IMG/VR virus record: IMGVR_UViG_3300023176_002545 | Reading direction: 5' to 3' (one strand) | DNA from: a virus | Length of the DNA: 64,000 nt | Shown here: positions 7,896 through 35,702 of the stretch, in pieces | Numbering within the stretch: the first letter of the stretch is position 1 | Layout of the letters: each line of letters opens with the position of its first letter | Translations under genes and position numbers: made by a program | The notes under the pieces: generated by a model | What the model saw: only the letters and a program-made list of their open reading frames with translations | What the model was told of the DNA's origin: nothing | The model's database searches: none

Positions 7896-8964
7896 TATAG
7901 CTCTCCAATACACGTAAAGGATATACACAGTCTTTAAATTTATAGTGTTCCATATACTTTAGTACATGTTTACTCATACATATTTCTCTACGACTACAAT
8001 TTTCACAACTTGTAGTTTCTGATAGGTAATCTAGCTGTTCTAAATATAATGTTGTTTTTAAATCAGTCCAACTTTTAATGTCTGTAGGATTTTGCACACG
8101 AAACTCATCAGTTTTTATTAGTGCTGCTTCATAAACAAACGGAGTTGAATAAAACTCTCCTTGACTGAATGTATAGTTAAGTTCAAACGGACCACCTTGG
8201 TCTTTGTCTGCAATAGTCATTGCAAGATATTCTTTATTTGTATCGTTAAAAGTATTTTCAATAGTCTTAACCCAGTCATTAATTAAACGTTCGTGTATTA
8301 CACCTTTGCTGTAACGTTGATAGCTAGGTAGTGTTTCCAATATACTTTCGTATTCATCACGCACTATGCGACTTATTTCTGCTAGATTTTCAATATTGCT
8401 ATCTATATTAAATGTAATGTAATAATCTACAGGATCAGTAAACTTGTTTAGTACTTCATGTATACGTGCAATGTTATTTTTTCTATATGTAGGATCTAAA
8501 ACTTGTTTAGGATCTATTACAACTTGGAAACCATATAGAAAATCATCACGCTTTGGTATACTGTTGAACTTCTCTATAACTTGGTCAATGTATTTGTCGT
8601 CTGCTTGCAGTGTACTTGGCATTTCAATAGTAGTACAACGACTTACTAGCGTTCTAAAGTTTTCGTAATCTAGTAAATCTAATATATTCAAGTTACCAAA
8701 CACATCTGTAGGACCAATGTTTACACTTGTAAAGCGTATATTGTTAGACATAAACAGTTCTTGTGCATCAAGTACCTTTTGAATGTCTTCGTTTGTAACT
8801 TGTTGACGTCTACGATTAACAAAGCACCCTGCACAGTTATGTATACAACCATCAAGAACGTCTAGAGTCATGTTTACTTTTATTTCGTGAGCATTTGCCA
8901 CACCAATATTGTAATCTTCGTGTCCTCTAGTTGTTTCCCAATAGTTATTTTTTACGATTGGCAT
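7885..8964 (-). CDS. Radical SAM enzyme 6 (GPTD subfamily)
   Basis: GCIHNCAGCF, IGPTD and CENCSRREIC...DC. Confidence 0.85.
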   Translation of the reverse strand: MPIVKNNYWETTRGHEDYNIGVANAHEIKVNMTLDVLDGCIHNCAGCFVNRRRQQVTNEDIQKVLDAQELFMSNNIRFTSVNIGPTDVFGNLNILDLLDYENFRTLVSRCTTIEMPSTLQADDKYIDQVIEKFNSIPKRDDFLYGFQVVIDPKQVLDPTYRKNNIARIHEVLNKFTDPVDYYITFNIDSNIENLAEISRIVRDEYESILETLPSYQRYSKGVIHERLINDWVKTIENTFNDTNKEYLAMTIADKDQGGPFELNYTFSQGEFYSTPFVYEAALIKTDEFRVQNPTDIKSWTDLKTTLYLEQLDYLSETTSCENCSRREICMSKHVLKYMEHYKFKDCVYPLRVLESYNAT

Positions 8965-10126
8965 GGTATACTTTCTTTATTTCTTCTAGTCGTTCATCGC
9001 CGTCTTCAGTTACTAAGAACTTTTTGCGATAACCTTGCTTGTCTGCTTCAACTGAATAGTCTGTCCAGTCATACATTTCTGCTGCACTTTTATTATAGTT
9101 ATAAATGTTCTTCATCATATTTTCTTTAGGTGCAATACAAGTGTCTACACCTAAGTAATCACGTAGTAATATTACTTTTCTGTTATAACAACTAAAGAAC
9201 AAGTCGCAATTTTCACACTCTGTACCTTTTGCACGTTCCATTTGTGTTAGTGTCTTGTAATATGCTTCGTCTAAGTCCTTAACTTCAAACTGTTCATCAT
9301 ACAATGCCATGTTTTCATACATAAATGGACTCAAATACCACTTGCCCTTCTTAAAGTTAAGTACTGTGTAGTTGTGTCCAGCATGAGAATGGTCAACCAT
9401 GATGTTGTTTAGATGAGTGTCTTCAGGTAGTGCTTCAAAAAATGCATTAAACTGGTTAAGTGTACGCAATATTATGTTAGGTTTATGGCTACGACTAACA
9501 CTTGGTATAAAGTCAATGGTAGTATCAAACTCTTTAACTACAAAATCATGTATTTGTTCATAGTCTAAGTCATATTGTCTAATGTTTACAATGAATGTGT
9601 ATGTACATTCGTGTTTTAGGTTAGCATCAATGTACGCAATACAACGTTTGAGCTGTTGTATGTACAATATGTCCTTGTAACGCATTGGATCTGTTGCAAT
9701 ACCTACCTCTATTTCAGTATCAGTGTTAACATTGGCGTGTAAGAAGTTAATCCAACGCTCTAAGTAGCTCATGTCTTGCTCTAAAAAGGTTGTAGTGAAC
9801 GCAAGTATAGGAGAGTTTTCATTTATCATAGACAACAAGTCGGGATCTTGCATTACTTGGTAAAAGTTTTCGCTAGACAGGCAGTCTGTTGGGCCTATTA
9901 GTACTTCATCTACTAAAATTCCCTTGTCAGTTATGCGTTTTACAAACTCACGGCACTGTTTTAAGTGATTTTCTTCAGGAGCATTGCCTCTACGGTGTAC
10001 AAAACAGCCCGGACAAGCGTGTATACACCCGTCTAACACATCTAATTGTATTTTTACGGCACTAACTGGTTTAGTTTGTGTTTCTGTTGTTAGCTCGTAG
10101 TACAAGTTGTTCTTAATGACTGGCAT
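8945..10126 (-). CDS. Radical SAM enzyme 7 (GPTD subfamily)
   Basis: GCIHACPGCF, IGPTD and CENCDLFFSC...TC. Confidence 0.85.
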   Translation of the reverse strand: MPVIKNNLYYELTTETQTKPVSAVKIQLDVLDGCIHACPGCFVHRRGNAPEENHLKQCREFVKRITDKGILVDEVLIGPTDCLSSENFYQVMQDPDLLSMINENSPILAFTTTFLEQDMSYLERWINFLHANVNTDTEIEVGIATDPMRYKDILYIQQLKRCIAYIDANLKHECTYTFIVNIRQYDLDYEQIHDFVVKEFDTTIDFIPSVSRSHKPNIILRTLNQFNAFFEALPEDTHLNNIMVDHSHAGHNYTVLNFKKGKWYLSPFMYENMALYDEQFEVKDLDEAYYKTLTQMERAKGTECENCDLFFSCYNRKVILLRDYLGVDTCIAPKENMMKNIYNYNKSAAEMYDWTDYSVEADKQGYRKKFLVTEDGDERLEEIKKVYHANRKK

Positions 10127-11141
10127 TTAGGTACTCCTTGGGCAATACACACTCTGTTAAACCTCTATCTTGCATGTAAAACAGTACATTACGCTCTGCA
10201 CAGCTCATTAAATGAGGACAACTTGCACATTCTTGAGTATTTTCAGCATATGCAAGGTTGCGAGACAAGAAATCATCACTGTTTATGTTTTGTACTTCAA
10301 AGTTTGGTGTACGTTGCAGTATAGCATCGTACAAAAACGGATTCATATACAGTTTACCATTGTAAAAACTGTAGTTAGAGCATCCATAGCCATTAAACTG
10401 TGCATCAAACATAGTATACAGGCTTTTGTACTTGGGGTCAATCTTTTGTTTGCTTAGTTCTTGTATAAACATTGGCAAATATTTACTTACTTTGCCTCTG
10501 CTGTTACGATCGTTAAGGAAACTTGGTAGTATAACTACAGGAGCATTGAAATCTTTCATGGTCATATCACATAAATGATTGTAATCAACACTATCAAATA
10601 TGCCTGGATAGTAGTTTACTCTAAACTGCACACTGCCTTGTTTAAACAGTTCAAGTTTGCGACACATATCTTCAACATCGCCCTGCAAGTAACGTTCAAT
10701 GTCGAGCACTATCTTAAAGTCTATGTCAGGTGTGCGATCTAGTCCTTCGTAAAGGCTCCAAATCTTAGTGTGTTTAGCAAGTATTGTGTTGTAGTCCTGT
10801 AGTAGCGTTGAGTTAAAACTTAATGCTGCAATGTTGTACAAGCGTTTCATACTAGGATGCTCCATCAACTCCCAAAAGTTTTCAGCATCAAATATATCAG
10901 TAGGTCCTATTACAACATCGTCAGGTGTATATGCACTAGATTCTAGTATATCACAAAGAGTTGTTAAGTGATCAGCACTGGTTAAGTTTTTGCGTGGAAT
11001 AAAACAGCCAGGACACTGTTGACTACAGCCGTGTAGTATGTCAGCATGAACTTCAACCCTAAGAAAGTTGTTATCCTTAGGGCTTACACCTTCAACGTAG
11101 TTATTAAATCCTGATGGAGTTGCGTTTAAGTTAACGAGCAT
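10113..11141 (-). CDS. Radical SAM enzyme 8 (GPTD subfamily)
   Basis: GCSQQCPGCF, IGPTD and CASCPHLMSC...EC. Confidence 0.85.
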   Translation of the reverse strand: MLVNLNATPSGFNNYVEGVSPKDNNFLRVEVHADILHGCSQQCPGCFIPRKNLTSADHLTTLCDILESSAYTPDDVVIGPTDIFDAENFWELMEHPSMKRLYNIAALSFNSTLLQDYNTILAKHTKIWSLYEGLDRTPDIDFKIVLDIERYLQGDVEDMCRKLELFKQGSVQFRVNYYPGIFDSVDYNHLCDMTMKDFNAPVVILPSFLNDRNSRGKVSKYLPMFIQELSKQKIDPKYKSLYTMFDAQFNGYGCSNYSFYNGKLYMNPFLYDAILQRTPNFEVQNINSDDFLSRNLAYAENTQECASCPHLMSCAERNVLFYMQDRGLTECVLPKEYLNASH

Positions 11142-12312
11142 TGACGATTTTCAAGGCATCGTCATTCCATTGCTCTGTGCTGTCAATAAACGGATTGTAC
11201 ATTTCAAGTACTTCTAGCGGCATCAGGCACTCATGCATATTCATAGCGTCTTGTGCTTGGAATATCAGTCTGTTTGCACATGCTACAGCATACTTACAAT
11301 CAGCACAATCCTTAACAGTGGAAGACTTTGCCAAGCCTTTTGCTATTAGTTGATCCCTCTTTGCCAATATTTCTTCAAAACTTAAACCTGTTACTTCTAA
11401 TTCTTTATGTTGTGTAAAGAACGCTTGTTCGTGTAGCATAACATTTAGGAATACACGAGGTGCATCAAAGCCAGGAATAATAGTTAGCCCTATGAAGTTC
11501 ATTGAGTTACAGTACAAGTTAGCCATACTCATTGTAACATCAGCATAGTTATCTTGATCTACTACTTCTTTTAAGAAGTTGTTCCATGCTACTAGATTCT
11601 TACGCTGGTGTAATACACTTGGTGCTCTAGAGAACGCAGGGTTCATTTCTAGAATAGTTTCGTAATCTTCAAGAATCTTGTATAGCAGTTTGTTGTAGTT
11701 TTCTTTAGTTAGATGTTTTTGCATTACATTACTTGCTTGTAATGTCCAACTCCAGTCAATGTTTTTAGGAGTTTCATTTGCAAAGAACTCTAGTTTTGCT
11801 TTTATGTCTTTGAAATATTCTTCATCATTAAGTATACGGTCAATATCACCTACTGGCATAATAAACTCAATGATCATTTCATCTCTGTATTTTGCAGGAT
11901 CGTCAAGTATTGAAAATACTTCACGTAGTCTTTCCATGCTTACATCGTCTATTTTGCTAGGTGTAGCAATACGTGCTTTTGTATGTTCACGCATGATATC
12001 CTGTATAATAGGATTGTTAAGAATATTGTCTGTATTATTTGCTGAGAAAAGATCAGTTGGACCAATAACAAACTCACGTAAATTAAGTCCTGTGCGTGTT
12101 ACGCCGTCTGCAAGTTCTTTTGCAGTAGTTAACATTGCATCCATTGTAGCAACGTCTTGATTTTTGTTAACAAAACAACCTAAACAACCATGGTTACAAC
12201 CAGTGAGTCCTTCAAAGTTAATTAGTACGTCAAACTTTTGTGCATGACTAGGAGGTAGACTCTCAGGTCCACTGTATCTCATCTGCTTGCAGTATGATTG
12301 TTGCATTGTCAT
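11131..12312 (-). CDS. Radical SAM enzyme 9 (GPTD subfamily)
   Basis: GCNHGCLGCF, IGPTD and CADCKYAVAC...EC. Confidence 0.85.
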   Translation of the reverse strand: MTMQQSYCKQMRYSGPESLPPSHAQKFDVLINFEGLTGCNHGCLGCFVNKNQDVATMDAMLTTAKELADGVTRTGLNLREFVIGPTDLFSANNTDNILNNPIIQDIMREHTKARIATPSKIDDVSMERLREVFSILDDPAKYRDEMIIEFIMPVGDIDRILNDEEYFKDIKAKLEFFANETPKNIDWSWTLQASNVMQKHLTKENYNKLLYKILEDYETILEMNPAFSRAPSVLHQRKNLVAWNNFLKEVVDQDNYADVTMSMANLYCNSMNFIGLTIIPGFDAPRVFLNVMLHEQAFFTQHKELEVTGLSFEEILAKRDQLIAKGLAKSSTVKDCADCKYAVACANRLIFQAQDAMNMHECLMPLEVLEMYNPFIDSTEQWNDDALKIVNAR

Positions 12313-13019
12313 TCTGTTATTCCCTCATCAAATAATTCTAGCATATTATTTGCAACACCATGTTTTATTAATGTGTTATATAAGTCAGCACCTTGATACT
12401 TACTTTCATTGTTAAAAACTCTAACATTTAAGTTACTAGTTGGCCACGGACCAAACTTATGTCCTAACAAATACAAAACATCAATAGCATATGTTGCTAT
12501 ATATACAATATTTAGCCCGATTTCTGTATCACTATCAGTGTATTCTAACTCTTCTGGCACAAGTTCTTTATACTTGTCGTTATATTTGCTGGCTTGATCA
12601 ATACAGAACAATGCAACGTGTTGCATTTTGTCTAACAAATCGTCAAATAATTTTCCATGTTCATTAATATACTCGTCGATCATATCATTTGACCACAGAG
12701 TATTCATTGCAGCATCAACATTGTTATATTCTTGACCTAATTTTCTTTTTGCAATTAGTGCTATAATTCTAGCTAGTAAAGGTGCTTCAACTAGAAAATT
12801 AATTTTAATATATTCATTTAGTAGTTCTGCATCAACAGTGTCAAACTGTACTTTAAAGTTTGTGTTAGCAATATAGACTAAGATATGTTTTACAGATAAT
12901 ACTTTTTTACTTTCTTCATAATTTACATGAAGAGTGTAATCATCACTATCTGCTTTGATCTTATAAATTTCTGCTAGATCTGTTGGTTTTAAAGGTAGTA
13001 TATAACTTTGTGTTGACAT
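12309..13019 (-). CDS. Hypothetical protein in the radical SAM locus (236 aa)
   Basis: Long ORF with a GGAGA SD, ATGA-type overlap with rSAM9. No recognised motif. Confidence 0.75.
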   Translation of the reverse strand: MSTQSYILPLKPTDLAEIYKIKADSDDYTLHVNYEESKKVLSVKHILVYIANTNFKVQFDTVDAELLNEYIKINFLVEAPLLARIIALIAKRKLGQEYNNVDAAMNTLWSNDMIDEYINEHGKLFDDLLDKMQHVALFCIDQASKYNDKYKELVPEELEYTDSDTEIGLNIVYIATYAIDVLYLLGHKFGPWPTSNLNVRVFNNESKYQGADLYNTLIKHGVANNMLELFDEGITE

Positions 13020-13027
13020 TGTGTCTC

Positions 13028-14080
13028 CTATACCAGTGGTTTTACTTTAAACAGCAAATACGGTATACGACTCTTACGCTTGTAGAAGAATTCTACTTCA
13101 CTCCAAGCATTTCTAAGTGCTTCGTTATTTGCAAAATTAAATCCGCCCTCTGCTATTTGTACTACAATAGGAATAGTTTTAGCAAATTCTTTGTATACTT
13201 CTTCATATTCCCAATCTTCGTGGTTGTTAATGAGTTCTAAGAGTTCAGCATTATTGCCAACATCGTTCCAAAAATCTCTTAACACATAAAGTGCTTGCAT
13301 GCGATTTTTATTTTGGAATGTATCTTTAACAAATTGTACTTTGTCCCATGATGAATTACCGTTTGCATGGAACCAATCAATAATACCGTTAATAACACTA
13401 ATATAACCAATTTTATTTTGTAGCATACCAATTACTTCATCAATCATTTTTTCACTGTGAACAGTGAATTTTTCACGCAAATGATTTTGTGTTACTAAGT
13501 TAATTTCTGCATACGTTTCATTTTCGTTATACTTGTCATTAATAAAGAAAAGTATATCATAACCCCAATGTTTACTACTTGGAGTGCCCATGTTATGCCA
13601 TTCATTTTTAGCGTAAACATCTTCAACACAACCGTTAATATCATTTTCTGTAAATGTAGTGTATGTTGCGTATGTAATATCTCTTTGGAACACTAACTTT
13701 AAAAAGTCTTTTACTACATCTTTAACATCTTTGTTAGTTGCTGTTTGTAGTAGAGATGCAATATACTTTGCATATACACGAATTAAATCTAATGCATCAT
13801 CAAATAATAAAAACTCTTTGTCATTGTTTGACAAATATTCCCATGTGTTTATTTGATCAGTTGTAGTGAACGAAAGCATATCCGGATTTGCATTAGGATA
13901 ATCTGTAAGTAGTGTATTAACATACGAGTCTCGTACTTGTGAGTGTCCTTCCGGTGCTACTAACACCATTTTTCTTGTTTGATCGCCTGCCCAAGGACTC
14001 TCTGCTAAAGCACTTACCATAGAGCTAGACTTTCCTAAATATTTCTTATTGTTGATATAATAAAAACTTTCACCTATCAT
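13028..14080 (-). CDS. Hypothetical protein in the radical SAM locus (350 aa)
   Basis: Long ORF whose start overlaps the stop of the CHxS protein (TAATG). No recognised motif. Confidence 0.75.
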   Translation of the reverse strand: MIGESFYYINNKKYLGKSSSMVSALAESPWAGDQTRKMVLVAPEGHSQVRDSYVNTLLTDYPNANPDMLSFTTTDQINTWEYLSNNDKEFLLFDDALDLIRVYAKYIASLLQTATNKDVKDVVKDFLKLVFQRDITYATYTTFTENDINGCVEDVYAKNEWHNMGTPSSKHWGYDILFFINDKYNENETYAEINLVTQNHLREKFTVHSEKMIDEVIGMLQNKIGYISVINGIIDWFHANGNSSWDKVQFVKDTFQNKNRMQALYVLRDFWNDVGNNAELLELINNHEDWEYEEVYKEFAKTIPIVVQIAEGGFNFANNEALRNAWSEVEFFYKRKSRIPYLLFKVKPLV

Positions 14081-14463
14081 TATCTTCTTCCCCTTGAGCC
14101 GTGACAGCTATAATGGCAACTACTATGACAGATTCTCCAATCAAAATATGTGTTAGTTAGTCTGCCTTCTATTTGGTTAACTGTGCGTGAAATACAGTTA
14201 GTTGCAAAATTTTGTACCTCACTTGCATATACTTTTAGATTATCTCCAATGTTATTTGGAAGATCTGCTGTACTATATGTTCCTTGTCCTGCGTTTACAT
14301 ACTCATAACGTCTGTTACCGTAAGCAGTTCCAGAACCCCAACCACTTACGTTTGCATAATAGCACGTAGCATTGAAGTTAATAGTCTTGTCAAAAGATCT
14401 AAGACGTAGATACGCATTGTTATAGTATCTTGTTTCTAAAGAAGCGTGTGACTCGCCTGCCAT
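14080..14463 (-). CDS. CHxS-repeat protein 1, candidate radical SAM substrate (127 aa)
   Basis: Ends ICHSSCHYSCHGSRGRR. Paralogous to the neighbour (LRxFDKT, GTAYGNRRYEYVNA). Confidence 0.8.
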   Translation of the reverse strand: MAGESHASLETRYYNNAYLRLRSFDKTINFNATCYYANVSGWGSGTAYGNRRYEYVNAGQGTYSTADLPNNIGDNLKVYASEVQNFATNCISRTVNQIEGRLTNTYFDWRICHSSCHYSCHGSRGRR

Positions 14464-14837
14464 TACCTTCTCCCTCTACTGCCGTGACAACTATAATGGC
14501 AACTTGTATGACAAATACGAAAATCAAAATACTGATTAGTTATTCGACTTTCGATTAAATCACAAGTTCTTGTTATAGCATTTAGTGCCTGGTCTATCAT
14601 ATGTCCTGCATCTACTAGTGTAGTATTGGGATACACGTTTCCGTTGTAATCACTGTTAGGAGCATTTACATACTCATAACGTCTGTTACCATATGCAGTA
14701 CCTGCGTTGTAACCGCCATAGTTTTGATTAGTATAAACTGTGGCTGCTACGTTTACAGTTTTATCAAACCCTCGCAATTGAGCACCAGCATTGCCGGTAA
14801 AATAATCTCTTGCGGATGTTCGATTCATGTTTCCCAT
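14463..14837 (-). CDS. CHxS-repeat protein 2, candidate radical SAM substrate (124 aa)
   Basis: Ends ICHTSCHYSCHGSRGRR. Starts 3 nt after the stop of the 4221-aa fibre gene. Confidence 0.8.
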   Translation of the reverse strand: MGNMNRTSARDYFTGNAGAQLRGFDKTVNVAATVYTNQNYGGYNAGTAYGNRRYEYVNAPNSDYNGNVYPNTTLVDAGHMIDQALNAITRTCDLIESRITNQYFDFRICHTSCHYSCHGSRGRR

Positions 14838-14840
14838 GGA

Positions 14841-15215
14841 TTATACCTTAACTTCAACTACATCTGTACCGTCTTCAATAGCAACACCAATTAATAATGT
14901 GTATTCTGCTATAGTACTTAGTTCGTCTATAGCACGGCCTGCACCGTCCTGATCAGCAATAATATACTGACCTTTCTTAGCAGAACCGTTAATCTTACAT
15001 GGAACACGACCTTTTAGTGCAACGAACGGCCACATTGGATCATCTCTGTTATCGTCTGTTTGGTTCATCATCAAACCTGGCTGTGTTGATACAACGCCTG
15101 CTAGTTTCATGCCTTCTTTGTATAGTGTAACTTCTTTGTCGCCACCAATACCTAGTACTGTACCTGGAGCATACACTGCGTCTGCTTCGTATTTCTCTGC
15201 CAAGTCAGCCCAGTT
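14841..15215 (-). other. C-terminal intramolecular chaperone / autocleavage domain (Peptidase_G2-like) of the fibre
   Basis: ADLAEKY...GVVSTQPGLMMN...VALKGRVPCKI pattern. Confidence 0.65.
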
Positions 15216-18200
15216 AGCACTTGCTGCTGTACCTTGATAAACACCGCTGTTGTCAACGTATGAAACATCTGTACCGTCACGTCTAAACTGAACAATACGA
15301 TCGGAGTTAGCACCAGCTGCCATGTAGAATCTGTTAGCATGATATTCAATCTTACCAACGTCATTACCTGGGTTACCAGTCCATGTTTCGTTTGCGTTTT
15401 CCATAAAGCGGATGCCTGGTGAGTTACCATCATTGTTGTATGAACGTAGTGCCCAGTTACCATCTTCGTTTAGGAAACCTTGTGATGCATCGTCTGCATA
15501 TAGTCTACCATAGATAGTGTTTGAACTGTTGTTTAAACGTAGTTCACATGATCCAGTATTTGCAGAACGGAACGCCATTGCGTTTGTTTCATTTGGATAA
15601 ATGTGCCAGCCTGCGTAGTTGCCACCTTGCCAGTAAATACCTGAGTTGCTTTCAATGCGTACCCAGTTATCAACATATAGCTCGCCTGCAATGTTTGCAC
15701 CGTCGGAACGTGTTTGAACTTTCCAACTACCATTGTGCATCATTTCAGTTTGGCCGCCGTGTACACCGTAGAACAACCACTGGTTATTTACATCGTTGTA
15801 GATACCAGTTGCTGTACCGCCATCATGCATGAATACTGCACGACCATCAATGCTAAAGCCTTCCCAGTTACCATAACCACTACCGCTAATTTGGATTGAA
15901 CCGTAGTCGCCTGTTGGTTCTCTTAAGTAACGTGTAGTTTGGTTACCAACTGCAATAAACTGTTTAACAACTAGTCGACCATCTGTTGTAAGTGCCATAG
16001 CACCAGCTGCTACGCCGTCACCATCATGTCTCCACTTCCAACCACGGTCTGTGTCGTTGTTCATTGTAAAGGTCATTGCATAGTCATTCAACCAACCCAT
16101 TGTTTGACCACTAAACATACCAATTGAGTATGAGCTGTTGTTCCAAACACGTAGTTTGTCGTAACTATCGCTGCCTTCGCCGTCAATGTAACCAATGTTA
16201 TAACGTGTGCCACTTGCAAACAAGTCTGGGAATGTACCAGCGTTTAGATTGCTTGCATTACGGAAGAATGCACTATCATTACCATCTAGTAAGTCTGCAT
16301 CTAAGCCGCTGCCGCTACCATCGTTACCAGCATGCCATACTTTGTATGCATTAGCACCCATTGACCAACCGCCAACTGCTAGATCGTTTGTACTTCCGTC
16401 TAGACCAAAGTGTACAGCATAGTCGCCACCAATATGGAATGTTAAGAATGCATCATATTGGTTAGCACCGTTACCTTGATATAGTTGTAATGTGTTAACT
16501 TCACCAGTGTTTTGAATTGTTGTTGCAGGAGCACTAATTGTAAACACACCGCCACTAAATGCAGCACCAGTATCAACACGTAGGAAGCTACTTGCATGCA
16601 ATCCGTCTAGTAGGTCTGCGTTTAAGCCTGAACCTGCACCGTCGTTAGCGTCAGTCCAAATAGCACCGCCGTTAACATAACCAGTTGTAGCGTTAAAGCT
16701 ACCATTAACATCTAGGTTATAAGTACCGCTTGGATCTTTGTTAATACCAACTTTACCATCACCGCGTACTGAGAATACAATGTTACCATTAGTTTGACTT
16801 ACGTCATTGTTAACACGGAAGAATGTGCTTGCCGCAGCATTGTTTGAGTTAGTGTCAAGTCTTACGTTAACGTTGTTGTAAGAGTTAATGCTTAAACTAT
16901 CGCCAGCACCCCAAGTATCGTTACGTGAACTAATACCATGGTTTACATAGCCGCCAATTGCACCGTAGTTTCCATCCCAGTCAAAGCTAATGCCATGTAC
17001 TTTTGCAAGTTCGCCTGTTGTGCCACCGCTTGAAATAAAGCGTCTATTAGTGTCAATAGTTTCAACGCCGCCTACATTATAACTGTTACCGTCAATAGCA
17101 CCAGTTAGTGTAAGTTCAGCAGCAACTAAGTTACCACCAACGTACAAGTTCTTACCAAAGCTACCACCACCGTCTACACGTAAAGCACCTGTTGTAGTGC
17201 TTGTTGCTTGGTCAGCGGAGTTAACGTGCAAGTAACCACTTGATGCACCAATGTCAATAGCAGTTGCAGCACCACCAATGTTGAGTGTAGTAACTGTATC
17301 GTTTAATAGATCAAATGTTGCTTGGTTAGTACCCAAACTACTTGCTTGTGTAATAACGTTTTTGTTAAGTCTAATAGCATCGCCTGCGAAACTTGCTACA
17401 AGTTCGCTTGTTTGGATGCCGCTACCTGAACCAATACTTTCGGAACCATAAATGTTAACTATAGCACCAGTACCTGAACCAGTACCTGGGTTTGGTTTTA
17501 GATTTAGTTCAGAACCGTTAACGTTAAACTGTCCAGTAATTGGACCTTTTACACCAATTGTACCTGATTGTTTAGAACCTTGTGAACCTCTACCAAACTC
17601 TAGTTTGTGAGTATGTGCATCAGTACCACTTACTTCAACGCGATTAACTTGTGTTGTTGAAGTACTGCCTGAAGTTCCTGAATAGCCTGTGTCAATAAAC
17701 ACAGATCCTGCTACACCACTACCAGTGCTTGCACCGCCTTGTACTGTTAGATCTGCACCTTGCTTGTTAGTACCTAATGCATTTGGTGCTTTGATTACTG
17801 AATCAACTGGAGCAGTTTCTACTGCATCGCCACCTACAACCATTGTAGTATTTCTAACTGCTAGTGTACCAGATTTGTCAGCACCTAAAGTAATTAATGT
17901 TGCTGCTCTACCAATACTTAGTGATGTAACTGTAGTATCGTATACAGTTGCACTTGTCTTAGTAGTTTTAATATCACCACCATCAACATTAAAGTCACCG
18001 TCAATTTGTAGGTTACCTAGTGAATCAAGAACCATGCGTTCTGCTAAGAAGCCTGCTGCCATCAAGTTAAACTTGAAGCTAAAGTCTTCAGAACCAAACG
18101 TTACATCTGATGCAACAGCGTCAATAGTACCACCAACTTCTCTGTTGTTGTTTGCAGTTTCTACTTGGAACTGCATACCAACACCAATACCTACTGCTGG

Positions 18201-33533: not shown

Positions 33534-33974
33534 TTAGCCATCACCTTCAGTATCGTCAGCACCTGTTAGTACGTCATCTGCTGTACCAAGAGTTGCGTCA
33601 ACACCAGCACCAATGCCTGTACCAGCTTCTTCAACTGCTACTGTTGCACCTGTACCTGTGAAGTCCCAATCAATTCTAGAACCATTGTCCATGGTTAGAA
33701 CACGACCGGAAATTTTAGTTACTTGACGAGCTGTTCCGCCATCGTCTACAGTGATTGACATTTCACCTGCTGCTAGTGCTGCTGATGCTTTGTCTACAAG
33801 GTAACAAGTACCTGTATCTGTACCGCCTGCATTTGAAACTTTGAAACGCTTTGAACCAGTTTGTTTTACAATGTAACCTGGAGTTGATCCGTTACCTGAA
33901 TTAAACTGAACTTTGATTTCGCTACCGCCTGCTGTAGGTGCACCGAAATATCTTTTGTTAATTGGTCTTCCCAT
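33534..33974 (-). CDS. Hypothetical structural-module protein (146 aa)
   Basis: AGGAG SD, own late promoter and structured leader. Confidence 0.75.
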   Translation of the reverse strand: MGRPINKRYFGAPTAGGSEIKVQFNSGNGSTPGYIVKQTGSKRFKVSNAGGTDTGTCYLVDKASAALAAGEMSITVDDGGTARQVTKISGRVLTMDNGSRIDWDFTGTGATVAVEEAGTGIGAGVDATLGTADDVLTGADDTEGDG

Positions 33975-34069
33975 TTGTTTTCTCCTATAAAGTAGTCCTA
34001 TCCGGGTTCTATCCGGTACGCTGTGGGTAACAGCATAAGTCCGCCTTGCGGCACACTATCTGACACAAG
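33975..34069 (-). promoter_or_regulatory. Putative structured 5' leader (three hairpins)
   Basis: GCC-GCAA-GGC (34043-34052), GCTGT/ACAGC (34020-34034) and CCGG/CCGG (34002-34016) between promoter and SD. Confidence 0.4.
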
Positions 34070-34076: not shown

Positions 34077-34106
34077 CCATAACGCCAGAAAGGTGAAAGC
34101 ATAGAT

Positions 34107-34129
34107 AAAAAAACCCGCCGAAGCGGGTT
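34107..34129 (-). terminator. Rho-independent terminator after pqqA
   Basis: AACCCGC-TTCG-GCGGG followed by T7 on the minus strand (UUCG tetraloop). Confidence 0.9.
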
Positions 34130-34174
34130 ATTCGCAATCTTGCGTTTCTAGCAAACGTTGCATGTAATCTTCAT

Positions 34175-34246
34175 CTAGCGGTTCATTACATACATTGTTA
34201 CTTCGAAACCAAAACGCATTTCTTCTGCTATAGGTTTTGTCCACAT
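34175..34246 (-). CDS. pqqA: PQQ precursor peptide PqqA (23 aa, MWTKPIAEEMRFGFEVTMYVMNR)
   Basis: Translated by hand (below the ORF-track cutoff). AAAGGAGAA SD 4 nt before ATG. MWxxP...GFEVTMY contains the E-x3-Y PqqA signature. Confidence 0.92.
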   Translation of the reverse strand: MWTKPIAEEMRFGFEVTMYVMNR

Positions 34247-34307
34247 ATGCTTCTCCTTTCAAATAATATTTAAACATAGATGAAAGGAAAAAGCATACGT
34301 AAAATCA

Positions 34308-34394
34308 TTAAAGACTGCTCAATATAAAATTGATTCTATTTCTTCGGTGCTGAATGATTAGTTGTTTGTAGCACCATAGTGTGAAGTTGTCCAT
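34308..34394 (-). CDS. 28-aa small ORF downstream of the riboswitch (MDNFTLWCYKQLIIQHRRNRINFILSSL)
   Basis: AGGAG SD 7 nt before ATG. Lies directly 3' of the glutamine riboswitch. Confidence 0.55.
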   Translation of the reverse strand: MDNFTLWCYKQLIIQHRRNRINFILSSL

Positions 34395-34423
34395 TACACT
34401 TCTCCTACTTAAAGGGTTAAAGT

Positions 34424-34467
34424 GCGTTCCTTCGCATTATGCTACTTCCGTCCCGTAGGATGAACGT
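34424..34467 (-). promoter_or_regulatory. Class I glutamine riboswitch (glnA RNA motif)
   Basis: CGUUC-AUCC-UACG-GGA-CGGAAGUA-GCA-UAA-UGC-GAAG-GAACG: P1 (CGUUC/GAACG), P2, conserved CGGAAGUA junction, P3 and GAAG. Confidence 0.85.
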
Positions 34468-34472
34468 AAAAA

Positions 34473-34479
34473 TATTTAG
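34473..34479 (-). promoter_or_regulatory. Late promoter (CTAAATA) upstream of the riboswitch
   Basis: TAAATA motif about 6 nt before the first riboswitch base and immediately after the gp23 terminator. Confidence 0.6.
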
Positions 34480-34481
34480 TC

Positions 34482-34510
34482 AAAAAAATAGGCCCCTAAG
34501 GGCCTATTTT
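34482..34510 (-). terminator. Rho-independent terminator after gp23
   Basis: AAAATAGGCCC-TTAG-GGGCCTATTTTTTT on the minus strand. Confidence 0.9.
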
Positions 34511-34532: not shown

Positions 34533-35702
34533 TTAGCTGAAGCTTACGTTAGAGATCGCAACACGCTCAACGTAGTCCGCTGCATTACCAAGAGATGATG
34601 CAGTGTTGTTTAGCTCAACATAACCATAACGTGTCATGAAGCTAACTACTGGCTCGAATGTGTCTGGATCTAGAACAACGCCGCTGCTCATCAATGGAAT
34701 GTATGGGCAGTAGAATGCTGCTGCATCTGCTTCAGATGAACCTTTGTAACCAACTAGTACGTCAGTGTCGTCTGCTGCATATGTATCAACGTAGATTCTC
34801 ATTGCGTTGTTTAGTGTACCAACGAACTTAGTGTTTGTTGGTGCTTCGAAAGTACCTTCTGTAGTACGAGCAAATGCACTTGTAGTTGCAGACTGTAGGA
34901 TTGTCAATGCTTGTGGTGAAACCACTGCAAAGTTACCTGCACCTCTACGTGTACGCTGTGCAATTTTGTTTGCTTGTCTGTTGATTAGAACTGCAAGTGC
35001 TGCATGCTCATCACCAACAAATGTTGCTGTACCAGATACTGCTGCCTGGTTGAATGTTTCACTTGCTGTACCAGCTAGTGAACGTAGTGAACCTAGGATT
35101 TCTTGGTCAATCTCAGTTGTAATTTCCTGAGCAAGAGCTGCCATGATTTCAGCTTCAACGTCAATGCCCTGTTGAGCTTGTGCGTCTTGAGCTGCTTCAA
35201 AAGTCCAGCGAGCTGATAGCTTTCTGGATTTTGCTTCAACAGTTTGCTTGAGGATTTGGATTGACATCTTACGTCCTGGAGCACCTTCAAGTGTTGCAGT
35301 TGCATCTGCTTTACCATTTGGATCAGTGCCTGCACCTGAATATGCAGTTGCAATCTTAAATGGTGATAGAGCTTCGTCACCTGCTGTTACGTTATCGTTT
35401 GATTCAGCATAACGTACTCTTAATGTGTGGATCTGACCCACTGGACCTGTCATTGGTTGTACACCAACTAACTCGTTTGCGATAGTTGTTGGCATTACAC
35501 GTCTGATGACTGGTAAAATGACTCTGTTTAGAGTCGCGACGTTACCGGCAGAAGTGGCACCAGCTGTTGCACTTTCTGACAAATACTTGCGAGTATTTTC
35601 AAGTGTTACAGCCATAACTGACTTACGATTGCCTTCAAGGCCTTCGAGCAGTGCTGTTTTAGTGTCCTGCCAGCGGCTTTCTAGTAGTTCTGACATTTTC
35701 AT
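34533..35702 (-). CDS. gp23: Major capsid protein
   Basis: VGVQPMTGPVGQI, KSRKLSARWTFEAAQD, EIMAALAQEITTEIDQEI, FYCPYIPL and MTRYG. The real start may be the second Met (35696). Confidence 0.97.
   Translation of the reverse strand: MKMSELLESRWQDTKTALLEGLEGNRKSVMAVTLENTRKYLSESATAGATSAGNVATLNRVILPVIRRVMPTTIANELVGVQPMTGPVGQIHTLRVRYAESNDNVTAGDEALSPFKIATAYSGAGTDPNGKADATATLEGAPGRKMSIQILKQTVEAKSRKLSARWTFEAAQDAQAQQGIDVEAEIMAALAQEITTEIDQEILGSLRSLAGTASETFNQAAVSGTATFVGDEHAALAVLINRQANKIAQRTRRGAGNFAVVSPQALTILQSATTSAFARTTEGTFEAPTNTKFVGTLNNAMRIYVDTYAADDTDVLVGYKGSSEADAAAFYCPYIPLMSSGVVLDPDTFEPVVSFMTRYGYVELNNTASSLGNAADYVERVAISNVSFS

Follow-up and report, generated by a model that had tools for sequence, protein, structure and literature searches.

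The window, the whole stretch of 64,000 nucleotides analyzed here from the viral record IMGVR_UViG_3300023176_002545, carries on its minus strand a 23-codon ORF (34246..34175) that is confirmed, as far as sequence can establish it, as a bona fide PqqA and not a chance ORF. The preferred reading, to which a probability of about three in four is assigned, is that this pqqA represents a functional, host-derived orphan auxiliary metabolic gene of a jumbo T4-like phage, feeding the PQQ pathway of the host; the gene is probably useful to the phage.

The pqqA gene, its phage and its likely host

Translation of the ORF returns exactly the peptide (P0002) that the initial annotation had quoted for positions 34175-34246 and places it on the minus strand, with the ATG start codon at 34246-34244 and the TAG stop codon at 34177-34175; the plus-strand reading of the same interval was rejected, its translation being meaningless. 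The profile comparison that the initial annotation had proposed as a check on PqqA identity was run with two curated models, and P0002 scores twice the cut-off of both, matching Pfam PF08042 with 42.2 bits (cut-off, 21.1; E value, 7e-11) and the NCBIfam equivalog TIGR02107 with 38.5 bits (cut-off, 20), in each case over the full model length. The peptide comprises 23 residues, within the family-typical length of about 20-40, and displays (i) the cross-link pair E-x3-Y, formed by Glu15 and Tyr19 within the EVTMY motif, and (ii) the leader residues typical of PqqA, including Trp2 (Trp-x2-Pro), Pro5, and Arg11.

The same-strand structural neighbors located upstream of pqqA comprise a T4 Gp23-type capsid protein (PF07068, 341.5 bits; phrog_138), a scaffold-like protein, a prohead protease, and a Gp20-type portal protein, and the downstream region displays virion-protein-like ORFs; phage genes thus occupy both flanks, and the contig is classed as viral. 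The IMG/VR record comprises 117,792 bases and is estimated by CheckV to be 33% complete, which corresponds to a genome of roughly 350 kb, with a GC content of 37.0% and no tRNA genes in the 118 kb of the record. The capsid gene is closest to those of jumbo phages of 285-390 kb infecting Pseudomonadota, and the public runs holding the stretch are salt-marsh metagenomes and metatranscriptomes from 2018.

The initial annotation had described a phage-encoded pqqA without pqqB-E in the window and had suggested scanning the rest of the genome for pqq genes. That scan, run on the 118-kb record, extends the statement to all 117,792 bases, corresponding to ~33% of the genome, in which HMM searches found one PqqA only and no PqqB, PqqC, PqqD, or PqqE. 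Since the PqqC model matched no control genome, the check for pqqB-E was repeated by tblastn with an Acinetobacter PqqB/C/D/E set, which gave no match in the record (best E value, 0.065). The source of this set, L008 (CAKLQF020000010.1), is filed as 'Acinetobacter phage MD-2021a' and carries ppk and a full pqqABCDE, looking like a bacterial chromosome. A PQQ-dependent alcohol dehydrogenase is likewise absent from the 118-kb record. The capsid, protease, and portal neighbors, together with the failure to find pqqB-E in the record, bear out a phage-encoded, orphan pqqA; the window gene does not belong to a pqqBCDE operon, which is not disqualifying given the dispersed cellular copies described below.

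The partial view of the genome allows an alternative in which the unseen two-thirds encodes a PQQ-dependent dehydrogenase or counterparts of PqqB-E, in which case pqqA would feed a pathway or enzyme of the phage and not only that of the host. The 33% completeness of the record speaks for such a fuller module, as does the viral methanol dehydrogenase found with viral PqqA in T4-like contigs from Lake Baikal (Coutinho et al., PMC7678222); against it, the 118 kb at hand hold no PqqB, C, D, E, or PQQ alcohol dehydrogenase, none is present in the records of L114, L094, L122, L035, or Melnitz (the latter filed as a complete genome), and none occurs near any of the 120 viral pqqA loci listed, with no pqqB-E within 1.02 Mb of flanks in the matches listed from at least 120 IMG/VR contigs. 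A fuller phage module is accordingly considered improbable, and provision of the precursor to the host pathway is retained as the preferred reading.

The relationship of P0002 to cellular PqqA was addressed by scanning a single genome from each prokaryote species with a degenerate DNA pattern for FGFEVTMY, which returned at least 120 loci, nearly all from methylotrophs among the matches listed. Residues 9-22 of P0002 are identical to those of the commonest Methylophilaceae PqqA, and the combination of Ala7 with this core is displayed, among the named genomes in the matches listed, only by Methylophilaceae, Methylotenera, Methylophilus, Methylopumilus, Methylobacillus, and Methylovorus, and otherwise, among the same matches, only by unnamed MAGs. 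PqqA from Methylococcales and Methylophaga is aromatic at position 7 and has Ile at position 20, and P0002 shares 20 of its 23 residues with the commonest Methylophilaceae forms versus 11-16 with the Methylococcales or Methylophaga forms. The differences at positions 6, 8, and 23 all fall at sites that are also variable in hosts or in other phage copies, and at the nucleotide level the window pqqA is about 80% identical to the sampled host genes. The Methylophilaceae-type assignment, which the initial annotation had proposed, is thus supported by the identity of residues 9-22 and by a combination of Ala7 and core that is unique to that family among the named genomes listed.

The PqqA peptides of two related phages, L301 and L114, carry Phe or Tyr at position 7, like non-Methylophilaceae Burkholderiales, and for this reason the host may be a member of the Methylophilaceae or a near relative. 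The 23-residue peptide, the only host clue for this phage, points most likely to a coastal or brackish-water host from the Methylophilaceae or from their close methylotrophic relatives. It would be unusual for methylotrophs that are very small and streamlined to host a jumbo phage. The glutamine riboswitch located upstream of pqqA, of a class typical of cyanobacteria, was considered as a host clue and rejected, being absent from five Methylophilaceae genomes. Five Methylophilaceae genomes, two of them of only 1.2-1.3 Mb, contain 3, 4, 7, 5, and 3 PqqA genes, and the cellular loci listed comprise 74 of 120 without an adjacent pqqB and 46 of 120 with one; these multiple, dispersed host copies fit a limiting supply of the precursor.

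Architecture and transcription of the cassette

On the minus strand, the capsid gene is followed by a two-way terminator, the GACTAAATA box, a glutamine riboswitch, and a 28-codon ORF, and the series continues with the GTTTAAATA box, the ribosome site, pqqA, a 45-nt untranslated stretch, a terminator, the freshwater-2 motif, and a 146-codon ORF (Table 1).

Table 1. Features of the pqqA cassette and its surroundings, listed in minus-strand order with window coordinates
Feature	Coordinates	Strand	Basis or remark
Major capsid protein (T4 Gp23 type)	34533..35702	-	PF07068, phrog_138; upstream of cassette
Two-way terminator hairpin after capsid gene	34485..34510	.	11 pairs
GACTAAATA, putative late-promoter-like box before riboswitch	34473..34481	-	Motif enrichment, alignment
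Glutamine riboswitch aptamer (glnA-leader type) heading small-ORF unit	34421..34468	-	Rfam RF01739
28-codon ORF with own AGGAG, between riboswitch and pqqA	34308..34394	-	ORF reading
GTTTAAATA, T4-late-promoter-like box, putative pqqA promoter	34267..34275	-	20 nt upstream of ATG
Shine-Dalgarno AGGAG	34253..34257	-	Read from sequence
pqqA	34175..34246	-	23 codons + stop; translation, PF08042, TIGR02107
pqqA 3' untranslated stretch, can pair with codons 11-21	34130..34174	-	Fold z-score -3.9
pqqA intrinsic terminator	34105..34129	-	7-bp stem, UUCG loop, T-run
Freshwater-2 RNA motif, downstream border of pqqA cassette	33972..34055	-	Rfam RF02980

The strong Shine-Dalgarno sequence and the dedicated terminator noted in the initial annotation are both present: the GGAG of the ribosome site occupies 34256-34253, ending 6 nt before the ATG, and the terminator hairpin at 34129-34112, located 45 nt after the stop codon, displays five G-C pairs in its stem, capped by the UUCG loop and accompanied by a T-run. 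Most blastn matches to pqqA genes of hosts and of other viruses extend no further in the 5' direction than the Shine-Dalgarno stretch. In L035, a fragment of a related jumbo phage, the stem letters of the terminator are replaced with the hairpin and UUCG loop kept, two pairs being changed on both sides yet preserved. Rfam matches to rsmX, IstR, and similar families over the cassette were rejected, as they fall far below the gathering scores and sit on the terminator.

The 3' untranslated stretch is conserved in the window, L301, and L035, with almost no covariation, and is not present in L114 according to the alignment. A structural claim for its pairing with the pqqA ORF was dropped, the stretch being conserved but almost without covariation; pairing over 34130-34215 (minus strand) may have an effect on mRNA stability or translation.

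The hexamer TAAATA, which resembles the T4 late promoter, occurs 12 times within 90 nt upstream of 45 window genes versus 1.5 expected, an enrichment of about 8-fold, and likely represents the late-promoter core of this phage clade. Based on this enrichment and on the likeness to T4, GTTTAAATA and GACTAAATA are read as putative late promoters. The GACTAAATA box is invariant in five of five aligned phages, and the alignment shows the GTTTAAATA box kept in the window, in L301, and in the inverted copy of L114. The hexamer, often extended to ATAAATA, lies 26-54 nt upstream of ten window gene starts, and all 12 occurrences fall at 10-84 nt. The TAAATA box of pqqA itself, together with the motif enrichment, makes use of the gene late in infection plausible.

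The elements on either side of the pqqA cassette are well-defined RNA families. The riboswitch matches RF01739 with 51.3 bits in an Rfam scan (gathering score, 35; E value, 3e-10) and is nearly invariant in the alignment of five related phages, and tblastn reveals homologues of the 28-codon ORF in the corresponding position behind the capsid gene of L259, L263, L268, L288, L300, and L301. The unit formed by riboswitch and 28-codon ORF, which in the window lies directly behind the capsid terminator, is nearly invariant in L263, L268, L300, and L301. On the downstream side, the freshwater-2 motif matches RF02980 over its full length with 76.6 bits (gathering score, 49.9) and is retained in L263 and L268, both of which lack pqqA; this motif is not known to have a function. 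The 146-codon ORF (33534-33974) has its ribosome site and start codon within the motif.

The position of the riboswitch raises a variant of the preferred reading, rather than an alternative to it, in which the 28-codon ORF and pqqA share a transcript headed by the riboswitch, so that pqqA output tracks the glutamine of the host. The riboswitch lies on the same strand, 175 nt upstream of the pqqA start, with no terminator-like site detected in between by the scan, and an RNA contig (X9; 206 nt, depth 3.6) connects the aptamer with the first 7 nt of pqqA across the 28-codon ORF. The two units are nevertheless found apart in both directions, since L263 and L268 have riboswitch and small ORF but no pqqA, and L114/L122 and L035 have pqqA but neither riboswitch nor small ORF; moreover, pqqA has a ribosome site and a TAAATA box of its own, and the glutamine aptamer class reportedly gates the translation of the neighboring ORF. 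Nitrogen gating of pqqA is therefore regarded as doubtful.

Of the words sampled from the 6-kb stretch around pqqA, 67-83% are recovered in 13 metatranscriptome runs. Four salt-marsh runs were aligned as RNA contigs, which cannot rank genes and may include DNA carry-over, and in which the contigs of the capsid gene display depths of hundreds to thousands, compared with few to 20 for the interval behind the capsid terminator. Over the pqqA ORF, RNA contig depth reaches about 8,000-17,600 in three runs (X7, X9, and X10). Strong expression of the window pqqA was rejected as an explanation of this depth, because the contig departs from the window at 34191, encoding a Cys-Asn rather than a Met-Asn end; its sequence indicates that the deep contig derives from a host or from another phage and not from the window copy. 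The deep contig is at least 95% identical to the window pqqA, which suggests that transcripts of closely related pqqA genes are abundant in the salt-marsh samples. In X7, X9, and X10, the contigs of the variant with the Cys-Asn end exceed the phage capsid contigs in depth, and mRNA of Methylophilaceae-type pqqA seems to be highly abundant in these samples. The interval 34083-34169 has no RNA contig cover in the four runs, which is uninformative on expression.

Recurrence and mobility of phage pqqA

A tblastn search of GenBank discloses intact phage pqqA genes of 23-24 codons, 82-87% identical, in Venkman, P19250A, MEP301, MEP401/MEP402, four Melnitz isolates, and the uncultured ctXG6705, each preceded by a ribosome site; every cultured Methylophilales phage returned by the search carries such an orphan, intact copy. 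Two matches to 'Acinetobacter phage MD-2021a' were discarded as a bacterial pqqABCDE contig. None of the six phage records inspected (one per phage) annotates the ORF on its coding strand, and the papers on Melnitz and on MEP401/402 make no mention of pqqA. Venkman and Melnitz infect OM43 strain H5P1, and P19250A infects IMCC19250; the published OM43 medium includes 1 nM PQQ, enough that it could mask an effect of the phage gene. In Venkman (L003, MT375522.1 9977-10045), pqqA sits between gp27 and gp26 on the strand opposite to all neighboring genes, and the annotation table has no locus tag gp28. Since standard gene callers and the GenBank methylophage records miss pqqA, surveys of viral 'metabolic potential' under-count it.

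The degenerate FGFEVTMY pattern returned at least 120 IMG/VR contigs with pqqA, and all copies listed are intact, comprising 23-25 codons. Taken together, 127 phage pqqA loci fall into 23 nucleotide-synteny clusters among the loci listed.

Within the jumbo-phage clade, the gene is found in three different contexts. (i) Of the 80 closest relatives by capsid identity (79-86%), L301 is the only one with pqqA behind the capsid gene, arranged as in the window, and several relatives retain the terminator, the box, the riboswitch, and the small ORF without pqqA. (ii) In L114 and L122, the cassette formed by box, ribosome site, and ORF is inverted and converges on the capsid gene, ending at the two-way hairpin of the latter, with neither riboswitch nor small ORF. 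(iii) In L117 and L035, both fragments of related jumbo phages (the L035 record comprising 44 kb at 12% completeness), pqqA adjoins homologues of positions 1-1463 of the 117,792-base record (G000:1-1463), more than 50 kb from the window site; these copies are the closest of all to the window pqqA among the matches listed, with 21 of 23 residues and 66 of 72 bases in common, and share with it the 3' stretch and, in rebuilt form, the terminator. L263 (L263:4390-4780) and L268 (L268:4395-4775) have, in place of pqqA, another insert of about 250 nt, bordered by the 28-codon ORF on one side and the freshwater-2 motif on the other.

The five longest relatives (79-210 kb) display no PqqA in a search that detects the peptide in the record of the window and in hosts. 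This absence and the three contexts in the clade indicate, from comparative sequence evidence, a small mobile cassette that has been gained or moved several times, and the riboswitch unit is an older, separable neighbor of pqqA.

The conservation of the peptide points to selection on the viral copies. Codons 12-19 are fixed by the search pattern and are unusable as evidence, the invariance of Glu15 and Tyr19 not being independent, and the window and L301 genes differ by too few changes for selection to be measured between them. Outside the pattern, among the matches listed, Trp2, Pro5, and Arg11 are invariant over 101 distinct viral sequences, Arg11 with five Arg codons in use, and are invariant in 51 Methylophilaceae sequences too; Asn22 is kept in 100 of the 101 viral sequences, with both codons used. 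Invariant residues in the face of synonymous turnover outside the motif imply purifying selection on the viral PqqA peptide. The intact copies, the 23 contexts, and the three sites in one jumbo clade thus support the view that phage pqqA is maintained by selection.

These observations also bear on whether pqqA is a neutral passenger that brings the phage no benefit, be it a hitch-hiking cassette or a remnant of host DNA. Such an origin would suit the very small size and the mobility of the gene and its absence from the five longest close relatives. It fits poorly with (i) the intactness of 120 of 120 viral copies listed; (ii) the synonymous turnover around invariant residues outside the searched motif; (iii) a ribosome site, a promoter-like box, and a terminator of its own, the stem of the latter being rebuilt in L035; (iv) the repeated acquisition or movement of the cassette over 23 contexts; and (v) the nucleotide identity of only about 80% to sampled host genes, which argues against a fresh capture. 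A neutral passenger is held to be quite improbable. The possibility that the peptide acts as a decoy or inhibitor, tying up host PqqD/PqqE and thereby stopping or redirecting PQQ synthesis, has nothing specific in its favor, apart from the consideration that an over-produced precursor could in principle titrate a chaperone; the phage peptide preserves Glu15 and Tyr19 and is identical to host substrates over residues 9-22, where loss of the reactive pair would be expected of a decoy, and the hosts multiply pqqA themselves. Inhibition of the host pathway is considered very improbable.

Proposed role and relation to known systems

According to the preferred reading, in which phage pqqA feeds the host pathway, the gene would be transcribed late from its own TAAATA-type promoter, with extra transcripts possibly arising by read-through from the riboswitch-headed upstream unit. 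Host PqqD would then bind the phage PqqA, PqqE would cross-link it, and, after trimming, PqqB and PqqC would complete the cofactor. PQQ biosynthesis consumes one PqqA peptide per PQQ, so that a phage copy would keep up the precursor supply: as the phage shuts down host transcription, its own pqqA would sustain this stoichiometric, short-lived input while the host enzymes persist. Sustained PQQ could in turn support PQQ-dependent methanol dehydrogenases of the XoxF/MxaF type, and with them the flow of energy and carbon through a long infection. A more far-reaching formulation, offered tentatively and thought unlikely to hold in full, regards pqqA as a self-contained mobile late cassette and a near-universal signature of phages on PQQ-dependent methylotrophs, hopping between unrelated backbones and between sites in one jumbo clade, and located here in a glutamine-riboswitch unit that would tie PQQ precursor supply to the nitrogen state of the infected cell.

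The concept of viral pqqA is already published, and phage copies are common. Viral PqqA together with viral methanol dehydrogenase was reported in T4-like contigs from Lake Baikal assigned to Methylophilaceae, and the same role, support of methanol oxidation, was proposed for the viral peptide (Coutinho et al. 2020, Microbiome 8:163, PMC7678222); viral pqqA is also listed with the phosphorus-cycling genes in a reservoir study of 2026 (PMC13188868). The Baikal VP_266 contigs (PMC7678222) resemble the present case in displaying an orphan PQQ precursor gene in an uncultured T4-like phage of about 35-37% GC with a predicted Methylophilaceae host, but they include a viral methanol dehydrogenase, which is absent from this 118-kb fragment. 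The carrier described here is a salt-marsh jumbo phage in which pqqA follows the capsid gene as part of a unit headed by the riboswitch; this comparison concerns carriers and contexts.

The cultured Methylophilales phages and the at least 120 IMG/VR contigs share with the window copy lone, intact genes for 23-24-residue peptides with the same core, but they display unrelated sipho-, podo-, and myophage backbones of 35-141 kb, in which flanks and promoters differ. The chromosomal pqqA genes of Methylophilaceae have the same length, identical residues 9-22, and, in many cases, a location away from pqqBCDE, whereas their genomes hold pqqB-E and positions 6, 8, and 23 are different in the phage copy.

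A likeness in logic only is offered by cyanophage psbA, encoding the D1 protein, in which the phage carries a fast-consumed part of the host energy system and for which expression and benefit have been demonstrated experimentally. In both cases, a consumable part is carried and the host is relied on for the rest, but the protein family, the pathway, and the hosts are unrelated, and for this phage pqqA expression and benefit are predicted.

The new elements comprise (i) the salt-marsh jumbo-phage carrier, (ii) the three insertion contexts within one clade, and (iii) the glutamine-riboswitch neighborhood, so that the added value lies in breadth, mobility, and context rather than in a new principle. 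The gene provides a cheap sequence marker for phages of methanol-oxidizing bacteria, through which methanol from plants and algae enters the carbon cycle of lakes, coasts, and marshes. It ranks among the smallest auxiliary metabolic genes, showing that the consumable part of a cofactor pathway may be all that a phage needs to carry.
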